Shown piece after piece: positions 14,716 to 17,430 of a stretch of DNA of 42,907 nt; the stretch's first letter is position 1, and every line of letters starts with the position of its first letter. The stretch spans positions 1 to 42,907 of the forward strand of contig CAJFJY010000006.1 of assembly GCA_904384205.1 (NCBI GenBank). Reading direction: 5' to 3'. Made by a program: the position numbers and the translations under genes. This stretch comes from an uncultured Clostridia bacterium (lineage in GTDB: Bacteria > Bacillota > Clostridia > TANB77 > CAG-508). The notes beneath the pieces were generated by a model, which saw nothing but the letters and a program-made list of their open reading frames with translations, was not told where the DNA came from and searched no databases.

Positions 14716-16228
14716 TTATTTTAATATAGGATATCCTTTATTTATATTTTCGTTATCTAAACTAAAAGCATTGTTTTCTTTATTTAATAATTCTATAAAA
14801 GTTGTTGTTTCTCCATTTTCCAAATTAATATTACTTTTATTTTGCATTTGACTTTCTGTTAATTTCATGCAATTTTCCATTATTCCTGTATTTCCTCCTG
14901 ACATTTCATTTGTATTAATTGTATAACAATATTTAATGTTTCCTTTATTATTTCCAATAATTCCTCCTCTGTTGATTCCTCCTTGAATATTTCCTACATT
15001 ATATGAAAATTCTATACTTCCATTGGTTTCATTTCTTCCTGAAATTCCTCCTATGTCCCAATTATTAGAATATGCATCTACTTCTCCTATATTATAACAA
15101 TTTTTTATTGTTCCAGAATTGATTCCTACAATACCACCTTTAGCATATCTTACATAACTTGTCGGAGCTAGTATGTTTCCTATATTATAACTTTCTTCTA
15201 CTATTCCAGAATTACTACCTACAATACCACCTATTGTATGATCTCTTAGCATTAATTCATGAGTATTTATACATTTTTTTATAATTCCACTACTCATATT
15301 TTGTCCACATATTCCTCCTCCACTCGCATTTAAATCTAAATATCCTTTATTTTCACAGTTTTCAATTAATCCAATATTTCTTCCTACAAATGCTCCACCG
15401 TAATTGCCTGTTAAATGTATTTCTATCTGATTTTTACAGTTATATATTTTTCCGTTTTCATTATTTATACTTGCCATTCCTGCAATATAATTGCGTCCTT
15501 GAATATATCCATTTAATATTATATTTTGGATTGTACCACTATTAGAATAAAATATTGCTTTATTATCTCCTCCATTTATATATATTCCTTCTATTTTATT
15601 ATTTTTTCCGTCTAAAATTCCTCCAAAATGGCTAGAATATGTTCCTATTGGTTCCCATTGATTTTCTTCGCTACAATTTAAATCAATATCATTTTGTAAT
15701 ACATAGTGACTGTCCATATTAAATTTGTATTTTTCTCCTCCTGCTTCTTCTATTATTATTTCTTCTCCTGTCCCTATTTTCTTGAATTGTTCACCTGTAT
15801 ATATTGGTATTATGTTTTGCTTTGCGTGTATATCCATTTCCTCTAACCATTCTGCTTGCTGTTTACTTACTTTTTCTTCGGTGTACACTAATTCTCCATC
15901 TTCCATATATAACATTTCGTTATATTTATCATCTATTCCTACTAAATTTTTTAAAGTTCCGAATTGGAATTCTTCTCCATCATTTTTTACTTCTTCTATT
16001 TCTATTTTTTCTTTTATATCTTTTATTTCTGCCATAAATTTTGCTTTTCCTGCATTATTTAATATTCCATTGTCTCCGTGAAATTGTTCCGATTGTTATA
16101 CTTGCTAAAATTAATAAAACTATTATGGTTATAGCTAATGCTACTAATGTTATTCCTTCCTGTTTTCCTCTTATGTTGTTTTTTCCTGTTTTCTGGTAAA
16201 ATCTTCTGTTTTTGCTTTTCTTTTGCAT
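14716..16228 (-). CDS. Prepilin-type N-terminus fused to a GLUG-repeat surface protein; needs a +1 shift at 16078 (about 503 aa joined)
   Basis: RBS AGGAGG, ATG 16228: MQKKSKNRRFYQKTGKNNIRGKQEG-ITLVALAITIIVLLILASITIGTIS, then CGG and a stop at 16055-16057. Skipping one base gives GDNGILNNAGKAKF, in frame with the 439-aa ORF containing GGIVGxNxG (GLUG-like) repeats. Confidence 0.8.
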
Positions 16229-16282
16229 ATTTGCTCCTCCTTCTACTAATCATTAAGTAAGATACTTAATGATTCTGAAGGA

Positions 16283-16327
16283 AATAGGAATAGCTTGATT
16301 TTACTACTAAAATAAGCTATTCCTGTT
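16283..16327. terminator. Terminator-like hairpin inside the invertible segment
   Basis: aataggaatagctt (16283-16296) / aagctattcctgtt (16314-16327) plus inner atttta/taaaat. Confidence 0.55.
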
Positions 16328-16383
16328 CTTAATTTTATTATTTTGGTTATTCATTTTACTTCAAATTTTGTATTTTGTAACTA

Positions 16384-16412
16384 TTGACATTACTGCTTTT
16401 TATTGGTATTAT
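16384..16412 (+). promoter_or_regulatory. sigma-A-type promoter inside the invertible segment
   Basis: TTGACA (16384-16389), 17-bp spacer, TATTAT (16407-16412), with an extended TGn. Confidence 0.75.
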
Positions 16413-16569
16413 ATTTTTAGAATTTAATCATTAAGTATCTTACTTAATGACTTTTTTGTTCTCCACTTTTTAGTAAATTAGATAGAAATTTTGTATTTTT
16501 TTCTGTTTCTTTACATATATCTTATGCTATAATATTAATATATAAATTATTATAGAAAGTACGGTTGTT

Positions 16570-17430
16570 ATGTTTATTAAATATGTTATTAAAAATACAG
16601 ATTGTGAATTTACTATTAATGATTTGTTAAAAAACAAATTTAATATTTCTGCAAGATTACTTAATAAATTAATTAGAAATAAAAAAATACTTGTGAATGG
16701 TAATGTTTTTGATACTAGATTAAAATGCAATTCTGGAGATGAATTGCTTATTGATTTTTCTGCTGAAGAAGATAATAGTAATATTGTTCCTACTAAGATG
16801 GATCTATCAATTGTTTATGAAGATGACTGGATGTTAGTTGTTAATAAACCTGCTAATATGCCTGTTCATCCTTCTATGGAACATTTTACTGATTCTCTTG
16901 CAAATGGAATTAGATTTTATTTTGATTCTATAGGTTTGAAGAAAAAAATTAGGATAGTAAATAGACTTGATTTAAATACTTCTGGCTTGGTTATTGTTGC
17001 AAAGTGTGAGTATATTCAAGAATGTTTAATTAAAGAAATGTCTGATGGCTCTTTTAAAAAGAGTTATTTGGCTTTAGCTTCTGGCATTTTTAATAAAAAA
17101 GATGATGTTTTGATTTTTCCTATTGCTAGAAAACAGGGTAGCATTATTGAAAGATGTGTGGATTTTGAAAATGGTCAATTTTCTAGTACTCATTTTAGGG
17201 TTATAAAAGAAATTGATGGCAATTCTTTGATTTTATGTTCTTTGAAAACTGGCAGGACTCATCAGATTCGTGTTCATTTGTCTTATATTGGTCATCCTTT
17301 AATTGGAGATTCTTTATATGGAAATTGTTCTGCTTCTGAGTTTCCTAATGGGCAGAAATTACATTGCTATAGGCTCAAGTTTGTTCATCCTGTAACTAAG
17401 AAATTGCTTACATTAAAAAGCAAATTTTGA
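16570..17430 (+). CDS. RluA/RluD-family pseudouridine synthase
   Basis: S4-like N-terminus, VNKPANMPVHPS, NRLDLNTSG catalytic Asp, TGRTHQIRVH, GHPLIGDSLYG. Confidence 0.93.
   Translation: MFIKYVIKNTDCEFTINDLLKNKFNISARLLNKLIRNKKILVNGNVFDTRLKCNSGDELLIDFSAEEDNSNIVPTKMDLSIVYEDDWMLVVNKPANMPVHPSMEHFTDSLANGIRFYFDSIGLKKKIRIVNRLDLNTSGLVIVAKCEYIQECLIKEMSDGSFKKSYLALASGIFNKKDDVLIFPIARKQGSIIERCVDFENGQFSSTHFRVIKEIDGNSLILCSLKTGRTHQIRVHLSYIGHPLIGDSLYGNCSASEFPNGQKLHCYRLKFVHPVTKKLLTLKSKF

Follow-up and report, generated by a model that had tools for sequence, protein, structure and literature searches.

A probable invertible promoter, assembled in the OFF state before a pilin-like gene of an uncultured gut Clostridia bacterium, and the family of switches to which it belongs

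In Escherichia coli the fim switch is a single locus, a 314-bp segment bounded by 9-bp repeats. The vsa, vsp and vpma systems of Mycoplasma have a Xer-like recombinase at the locus and a variable family of surface proteins, with one promoter being moved between silent, clustered genes. In Clostridioides difficile the tyrosine-type recombinase RecV acts in trans on several short switches bounded by inverted repeats (cwpV, flgB, cmrRST, pdcB and others), which control surface and motility genes. Bacteroides fragilis has both the serine recombinase Mpi, a global invertase, and Tsr tyrosine recombinases for outer surface proteins. Work by Weinacht and colleagues from 2004 is said to have found B. 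fragilis tyrosine recombinases encoded beside the switch that they turn. Among published accounts, inversion of the C. difficile flagellar switch by RecV is described in PMC7446863 and PMC8890394. Here we analyze a contig of 42,907 nucleotides (CAJFJY010000006.1, assembly GCA_904384205.1, positions 1 to 42,907 of the forward strand; hereafter the window) from an uncultured Clostridia bacterium of the lineage TANB77; CAG-508. We consider its positions 16248-16450, in front of a pilin-like gene, to be a promoter inverton assembled in the OFF state, with a probability of roughly 0.8. The switch belongs to a regulon of at least nine switches, each gating one large pilin-headed protein with a varied ectodomain, and a cell population can thereby vary its surface. 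Contigs of the source genome (G000) are given below as C-numbers, the window being C6, fetched loci as L-numbers and sequencing runs as X-numbers.

Compared by build rather than by RecV sequence, the system resembles the C. difficile switches in combining a Firmicute host, a putative trans-acting tyrosine recombinase and multiple invertible regulatory segments. It differs from them in that one uniform palindromic arm sequence is used at all sites, all switches serve one paralogous gene family and the recombinase gene is itself flanked by sites. With B. fragilis it shares genome-wide invertible promoters of about 200 nt with a consensus repeat, most of them OFF, as well as alternative surface structures and life as a gut commensal; the linked enzyme is, however, a tyrosine recombinase whereas Mpi is a serine recombinase, the phylum is another, and the cargo consists of pilin-like proteins and not of capsule loci. 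The fimS/FimB/FimE system of E. coli is alike in that an invertible promoter directly precedes a gene for a pilus subunit and genes for tyrosine-type invertases adjoin the switch. The likeness to the Mycoplasma systems lies in a small low-GC genome, variable surface proteins and a tyrosine recombinase at the locus, and the switch-gated protein of contig C71 carries DUF285, a domain named after Mycoplasma proteins. In contrast to Mycoplasma, each dispersed gene here has its own invertible promoter.

The switch in the window comprises the following features:
16234-16240, minus strand: ribosome-binding site GGAGGAG of the pilin-like gene
16248-16274: left recombination site, a 27-nt palindrome with 12-nt arms at 16248-16259 and 16263-16274 and the centre AGA at 16260-16262
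16275-16425: putative invertible segment of 151 nt, between both sites
16279-16330, plus strand: hairpin followed by a T-rich stretch, upstream of the promoter and sharing its strand
16384-16412, plus strand: outward promoter, with the -35 element TTGACA at 16384-16389, a 17-nt spacer, TG at 16404-16405 and the -10 element TATTAT at 16407-16412
16426-16450: right recombination site, with arms as in the left site and the centre TCT at 16438-16440, the reverse complement of the left centre

As the preliminary description of this locus had reported, the inverted repeats are perfect: 16250-16274 and 16426-16450, of 25 nt each, are 100% complementary. Its division of each repeat into 10-bp arms around a 7-bp core did not hold for the window copy, which has 12-nt arms around a 3-nt centre, whereas a crossover core of 7 bp is compatible with the family comparison given below. 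Read as a direct repeat, the two copies of the site are 88% alike, and only the centre (AGA versus TCT) distinguishes the inverted from the direct arrangement. Across the window the site pattern TCATTAAGTANNNTACTTAATGA, allowing up to three mismatches, gave two matches where 0.02 were expected, and none of 100 shuffled sequences reached two.

The near-consensus promoter next to the right repeat was recovered as described. It agrees with the consensus at 11 of 12 positions, carries the additional TG before the -10 element and ranked top of the 8 promoter-like sites in the scanned kilobase. It lies 15 nt from the right site and, being directed away from the pilin-like gene, is in the OFF state. 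On the other side the left site begins 21 nt from the ATG (16228-16226), close to the earlier estimate of about 20 bp, with GGAGGAG (16240-16234) in between. The strong hairpin noted beside the left repeat was also borne out (-21.9 kcal/mol, z = -4.6; 0/200 shuffles fold as well) and may be a terminator that insulates the promoter against read-through from upstream. A strong hairpin is present in just 3 of the 8 complete switches (C6, C24, C33), the other five being without one, and it is therefore not part of the definition of the switch family. A search for an Rfam identity for the hairpin returned just two sub-threshold mir-31 matches, which we took as chance. Profile searches with PF00589 and PF00239 gave no match on C6, in agreement with the earlier statement that no recombinase is encoded nearby.

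Further copies near pilin genes and a tyrosine recombinase, for which the preliminary description had proposed to look, were both found in the source genome (1.49 Mb, 27% GC, 86 contigs, 93.7% completeness), the window DNA of which occurs in chicken gut and dust metagenome runs of 10 studies. The genome holds 18 sites at up to two mismatches, compared to 0 for a reversed control pattern. Eight complete pairs, on C6, C7, C24, C25, C33, C55, C69 and C76, span 190-212 nt. When aligned in promoter orientation all eight showed an outward TTGAC[AT]-N17(TG)-TAT[TC]AT promoter with the -10 element ending 15-16 nt inside one repeat, and outside the promoter the eight interiors were poorly conserved. 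A ninth switch runs across a contig break, with one part at the end of C72 and the other at the start of C71; C71 overlaps C33. Of the 14 pilin-like N-termini in the genome, nine have a site at a distance of 62-255 nt; the five without a nearby site are two on C9 and one each on C29, C37 and C45. The bodies of the gated proteins differ: C6 has GLUG, C71 has DUF285/BspA-type leucine-rich repeats and C25 has an M26-N-like region; others gave no Pfam match.

The genome also contains four solo half-switches, each a promoter with a single site (C11:4479, C26:812, C48:1130 and C17:34139). For the three on C11, C26 and C48, allowing up to 7 substitutions revealed no partner site within 320 nt, and none of them adjoins a pilin-like gene; deletions, or recombination between loci, probably left them behind. 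Across the genus, at least three sites were found in 4 of 61 genomes (G000 with 16, G055 with 19, G005 with 8 and G024 with 3); of the remainder 53 had none and 4 had one or two, which is the range of the control. From the matches listed by a metagenome scan with a 17-nt core pattern 80 loci were fetched; nearly all of these 80 were single chance matches in unrelated DNA, the useful ones being L036, L110 and L056.

To compare the crossover region, 32 pairs of sites were aligned, from G000 (8), G055 (6), G005 (5), G024 (3), L110, L163-L166 and five further recombinase loci. In 32/32 the partners matched, in inverted sense, at positions -3 to +8, several of these pairs being paralogs or orthologs and hence not independent. 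Between loci the three centre positions were the least conserved (commonest base 0.50-0.69). The arm positions -9 and +9 are equally variable (commonest base 0.38 and 0.36) and were matched in just 14/32 and 19/32 pairs. Because equally variable arm positions are unmatched in many pairs, the matched centres do not stem from recent duplication. Where changes occur beside the triplet (C24, C76, L034, L152 and L170, the last with CAATAGA, for example), they are mirrored in the partner site and all fall within the central 7 nt. Judged from these alignments, the central matched stretch fits an overlap region of about 7 bp, and overlap regions of about this length are common in tyrosine recombinase sites. 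The likeness to loxP of Cre and FRT of Flp is one of the site only: inverted binding arms around a short asymmetric core that is free in sequence and yet matched to its partner. Here, unlike in those systems, just 3 nt at the centre vary, and the need to match extends over 7 nt at most.

The cassette was found in both orientations relative to the genes behind it. Its promoter points away from the gene (OFF) on C6, C7, C24, C25, C33 and C69 and toward the gene (ON) on C55, C76 and C72/C71. The gene-side flank of C6 matched that of C72 in the same sense at 83/100 positions, compared to 37/100 when inverted. Inside the repeats this relation was reversed: the right half of the C6 interior matched C72 at 67/74 positions when inverted and 45/74 in the same sense, and the left half matched C71 at 66/76 when inverted and 52/76 in the same sense. 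The BLAST pieces of C6 against C72/C71 overlap inside the repeat, which places the breakpoints in the repeats. Read toward the gene, C72 shows the promoter, 15 nt, the site and then TAGTAAAAGGAGGAGCAAATATG, with a GGAGGAG ribosome-binding site and the ATG. By its sequence layout C72/C71 is the ON form predicted for the C6 locus, and the earlier proposal that inversion would place the promoter before the pilin ribosome-binding site thus has a counterpart in a paralog. In the second subfamily C7 and C55 stand in the same relation, with an inverted interior.

A comparable pair of states was seen among orthologs. The switch next to the recombinase gene (see below) is OFF in four other species (L163-L166) and ON in the metagenome locus L110, with flanks alike at 105-106/120 and 92-95/120 positions. 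TCGTTAAGTA, the inner arm next to the promoter, and CCATTAAGTA, the distal one, have swapped sides along with the promoter. The interiors of these loci are too diverged for a clear score (33.5 versus 24.0 for L163, 38.5 versus 22.0 for L165).

Profile searches of the source genome gave five PF00589 matches and 13 PF00239 matches. None of the latter lies near a site, and the sole one that shares a site-bearing contig is about 28 kb away, on C17. A PF00589 protein of 298 aa on the same contig (C17:34265-35161) scored 101.9 bits with PF00589 (cut-off 27.1) and 42.4 bits with PF14659 (cut-off 22.6). Its sequence shows RIGE, HTLRH, LGHS and NKY, which we take to be the catalytic residues. An exact copy of the left site of the window (centre AGA) lies 104 nt upstream of this gene, and the contig ends inside another site (centre TTT), 6 nt after its stop codon. 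Within this region (C17:34139-35186; L003, L151) the solo site upstream of the gene carries a shortened outward promoter. The protein scored below the cut-offs of all NCBIfam equivalogs, XerC/XerD and FimB/FimE included, with XerA best (94.8 bits versus 220); tyrosine-type DNA invertase models gave 23.6 bits versus 221 (E 3.3e-05) and 18.2 versus 222. Lying far below these family cut-offs, it is not a member of the FimB/FimE group. Among solved structures the closest to it in sequence is the Tn1549 integrase (6en0, E 2e-19), a further difference from Cre and Flp.

We then examined 32 recombinase loci from other genomes. A site lies at most about 12 nt after the stop codon in 11 of them (L151, L153, L156, L163-L166, L170, L175, L178 and L181); in L162 it lies 156 nt after the stop, and in L152 a pair is found just upstream. 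The layout of recombinase stop, switch and pilin gene recurs in 11/32 of the recombinase loci and in L110. In L163-L166, where the recombinase is 94-95% identical, the OFF-state promoter of the downstream switch reads antisense into the recombinase gene, an arrangement that could feed back on switching. The repeat sequence varies between recombinase loci, for example TTAAGCAATAGACTTAA in L170, and enzyme and site appear to travel together. A homolog (E <= 1e-30) is present in 15/61 genomes of the genus, including all four site-rich ones, and the relatives that carry it come from several animal and human gut assemblies. The source genome has a paralog on C37, 57% identical to the C17 protein and without an adjoining site.

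Based on this anatomy we propose that the locus holds two lox-like minimal sites, in which recombinase-binding arms surround a short crossover core, flanking a cassette of 151 nt. The cassette would carry a strong sigma-70-type promoter 15 nt inside one site, with a terminator hairpin behind the promoter. A tyrosine recombinase acting in trans would bind as a dimer on each site, bring the sites into synapsis and exchange strands in the matched core, which would invert the 151-nt cassette. The best candidate for this enzyme is C17:34265-35161, and the C37 paralog is possible too. Once flipped to ON, the cassette would have its promoter facing the pilin-like gene; a transcript starting about 7 nt after the -10 element would cross the left site and come to the ribosome-binding site about 55 nt on, ahead of the ATG, in the layout found in C72. 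With the cassette OFF, transcription would pass over the right site toward the rlu gene and probably end at the site hairpin and the T6 run that follows. The features on this side are:
16452-16457, plus strand: T6 run, immediately 3' of the right site
16570-17430, plus strand: pseudouridine synthase gene (RluA/RluD-type; rlu), PF00849, E 2.4e-28, on the side that the promoter now faces

As RNA the right site folds into a hairpin of -8.5 kcal/mol, and together with the T6 run it looks like a weak terminator for OFF-state transcripts, which may halt them ahead of rlu, the gene that the preliminary description suggested the promoter may feed. The site on the side away from the gene is followed by a T run or terminator at 6/8 loci, the flanks having been read by eye and T runs being common at 27% GC.

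Several further features of the switch family were observed. In the second subfamily (C7:29611-29815, C25:3903-4041, C55:2708-2847) switch and gene are separated by a conserved leader of some 140-200 nt, which holds a second, fixed promoter-like motif, TTGACT-N17-TAAAAT or TAGAAT; given this motif, the genes may not be fully silent in the OFF state. The C55:2848-3057 pair combines different arm types (left TCC..GGA, right TCA..TGA) with a shared centre, AGT/ACT, that is also present at four other loci, and looks like the result of a past exchange between switches of different loci. On C76 (C76:26-1935; L188) the neighbor of an IS30-like transposase gene is a pilin-like gene shortened to 60 aa, the switch of which is ON. 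The flank of the C17 solo site (C17:34005-34138) and the far flank of the C76 switch (C76:2122-2260) share about 135 nt of homologous sequence, a terminator hairpin included. Contigs break inside switches at C72/C71 and at the end of C17 in the source genome, and at several contig ends in G055. There, single sites that share a centre triplet (CTA, GGA, TCT) stand on different contigs at the ends L017/L024, L018/L023 and L019/L025.

The gene behind the switch is represented by two open reading frames:
16055-16228, minus strand: ORF of 57 aa with a pilin-like N-terminus (..EGITLVALAITIIVLLILA..), hydrophobic, ending early
14716-16035, minus strand: ORF of 439 aa, a surface-protein body with a GLUG motif (PF07581, E 4.3e-08)

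The pilin-like N-terminus named in the preliminary description was found, whereas a frameshift within the gene had been overlooked. The frame of the 439-aa ORF is open upstream from about position 16095, where it reads ..FHGDNGILNNAGKAK.., and continues as ..GDNGILNNAGKAK.. like the intact paralogs. In a codon-level comparison the minus-strand stretch 16071-16081 reads TCA-C-GGA-GAC where intact paralogs have TCA-GGA-GAT, with an extra C at 16078. The 57-aa ORF ends early because this one extra C creates a CGG codon (TCA-CGG-AGA). No codon is used less in the genome than CGG, which stands at 0.07 per 1000 and was counted 20 times among ORFs of at least 300 aa. The identical C insertion occurs in the paralogs C33/C71 and C72, the bodies of which stay open for 685 and 303 aa, and the extra C was present in the contigs of all four runs examined. 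The frameshift motif was absent from the 60 other genomes of the genus searched. A programmed frameshift conserved across species was considered and gains no support from conservation, with the motif in 1/61 genomes. Reading would return to ..TIS-GDNGIL.. after a +1 shift at the hungry codon CGG; the simpler view is that a defective 5' module has spread recently.

No Pfam or NCBIfam match was obtained for the 57-aa ORF. With N_methyl (PF07963) the paralogs scored 16.6-17.8 bits, below the cut-off of 21.2, and they are thus not placed among type IV pilins by this model. The pilin-like motif, G|ITLIAL, lacks the Glu at +5. The same Glu5-less N-terminus (RGITLVALVITII..) heads two short genes (C9:16939, C9:17435) that have PilB/PilT-type ATPase genes (C9:20489-22533) at a distance of about 3 kb, and a prepilin peptidase gene is present on C3 (C3:3482-3820). 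Given the pilus-gene neighbors on C9 and the prepilin peptidase, "pilin-like" is still reasonable as a descriptive name, and the C9 genes and C3 peptidase may make up a type IV-like pilus with an unusual class of pilin.

A number of observations weigh against the interpretation of the window locus as a working inverton. Orientation there was read from consensus Logan contigs of four runs of four studies, a form of data in which the consensus drops minority forms, and only OFF was observed: in the window itself, in another assembly (L036) and in the contigs of X1 (possibly the source), X5 and X8, which bridge both repeats in the sense of the window, from 16215 to beyond 17400. Run X3 gave fragments only, at a depth of 2.6-6.7. 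Of the 8 joints listed from these contigs none is a strand change. The rlu-side locus is not conserved in four close relatives, in which the rlu gene was found with no switch or pilin gene beside it. The pilin-like gene is frameshifted, and the switch may therefore gate a dead gene. As for the enzyme, switch adjacency was scattered over a tree of 24 recombinases, with 5 changes where a single clade of switch-adjacent enzymes had been expected, and the linkage thus does not favor the C17 protein over its C37 paralog. Finally, in G055, which has 19 sites and is about 80% complete, the only homolog found (C53:1697-2588; L162, L023) is broken by stops and a change of frame, to be explained by switches that are locked, by an error of assembly or by the absence of a second copy from the incomplete genome. 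The only serious rival is a former inverton that is now locked, either no longer flipping at the window locus or flipping without effect because the gated gene is a frameshifted pseudogene. We regard this as unlikely. The single orientation in the window, L036 and the contigs of X1, X5 and X8 agrees with it, as do the extra C at 16078 that ends the N-terminal ORF after 57 aa and the four solo half-switches, which indicate that family members decay. However, both sites of the window are intact and matched over 25 nt, its promoter retains 11/12 consensus positions, and the downstream frame has remained open for 439 aa despite a GC content of 27%, at which stop codons are frequent. The same frameshift stands in two paralogs with open bodies (685 and 303 aa), suggesting that the bodies are still expressed, and consensus contigs would miss a minority ON form. 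We favor a switch that still flips.

Two other explanations dispense with inversion altogether. The cassette could be a MITE-like element with terminal inverted repeats and an outward promoter, spread by a transposase and not inverted in place. It is indeed multi-copy, about 200 nt long and AT-rich with terminal inverted repeats of 23-27 nt, solo ends occur in contexts without a pilin gene, and an IS30-like transposase gene adjoins the C76 copy; yet the copies stand at a fixed place before paralogous genes with homologous flanks rather than at scattered targets, no target-site duplication or direct repeat was seen at their borders, and the interiors are poorly conserved apart from the promoter. 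Alternatively, two palindromic operators for a dimeric repressor could surround a fixed promoter serving the rlu side, with no rearrangement. A near-perfect palindrome per site would suit a dimeric helix-turn-helix protein, and a single orientation was observed at the window locus. Operators have no need of reverse-complement centres, yet all 32 pairs are matched while their centres differ between loci; nor would mutation keep such a match in the palindromic ends of a MITE, and the arm positions -9 and +9 are indeed unmatched. The orientation of the cassette relative to homologous gene starts, which takes both forms, also speaks against operators; the preliminary description had named a single orientation as the finding that would favor them, and at the level of the family both orientations occur. 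So does the flank away from the gene, which is different at every locus (rlu at C6, other sequence at C7, C25 and so on), so that the promoter is without a common target on that side. The gene linked to the sites encodes a tyrosine recombinase, which fits neither proposal. Recombination is favored over both because the centres are matched in 32/32 pairs, the interior is inverted between paralogs and the sites are linked to a recombinase; we hold the MITE-like element to be very improbable and the pair of operators slightly more so.

Beyond the promoter inverton itself, we tentatively suggest a wider scheme that we hold to be possible and rather less than an even chance, namely that this reduced-genome lineage runs a self-contained, "address-coded" inverton regulon. 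One small tyrosine recombinase would flip ten or more promoter cassettes. Shared arms with locus-specific cores would let partners be matched within a locus and only rarely between loci. Each cassette would gate one giant pilin-headed protein, and these proteins may be alternative tip adhesins of one Glu5-less type IV-like pilus. The recombinase would sit beside its own switch, with the OFF promoter running antisense into the recombinase gene and feeding back on the switching rate. In three paralogs, including the gene in the window, a +1 shift at the rarest codon, CGG, may form a second layer of control.

A literature search found no description of the site, the recombinase clade or the gene family, supplementary inverton catalogues being outside that search and possibly listing such loci; in the main text of PMC11602134 the words "Clostridia", "pilin" and "pili" do not occur. 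In function the family is one more inverton regulon, like those of Bacteroides and of RecV in C. difficile. It is distinctive in its uniform lox-like sites with free, pair-matched cores, in a recombinase flanked by its own sites, in its pilin-headed cargo and in its very small genome. Phase variation by promoter inversion would then not be confined to Bacteroides and a few pathogens, as it would also organize the surface of tiny uncultured gut Clostridia. With short palindromes and a free, pair-matched core, these clean sites are a good natural system for studying how a tyrosine recombinase avoids mixing up its many loci, and the site family is a possible source of compact orthogonal recombination sites.

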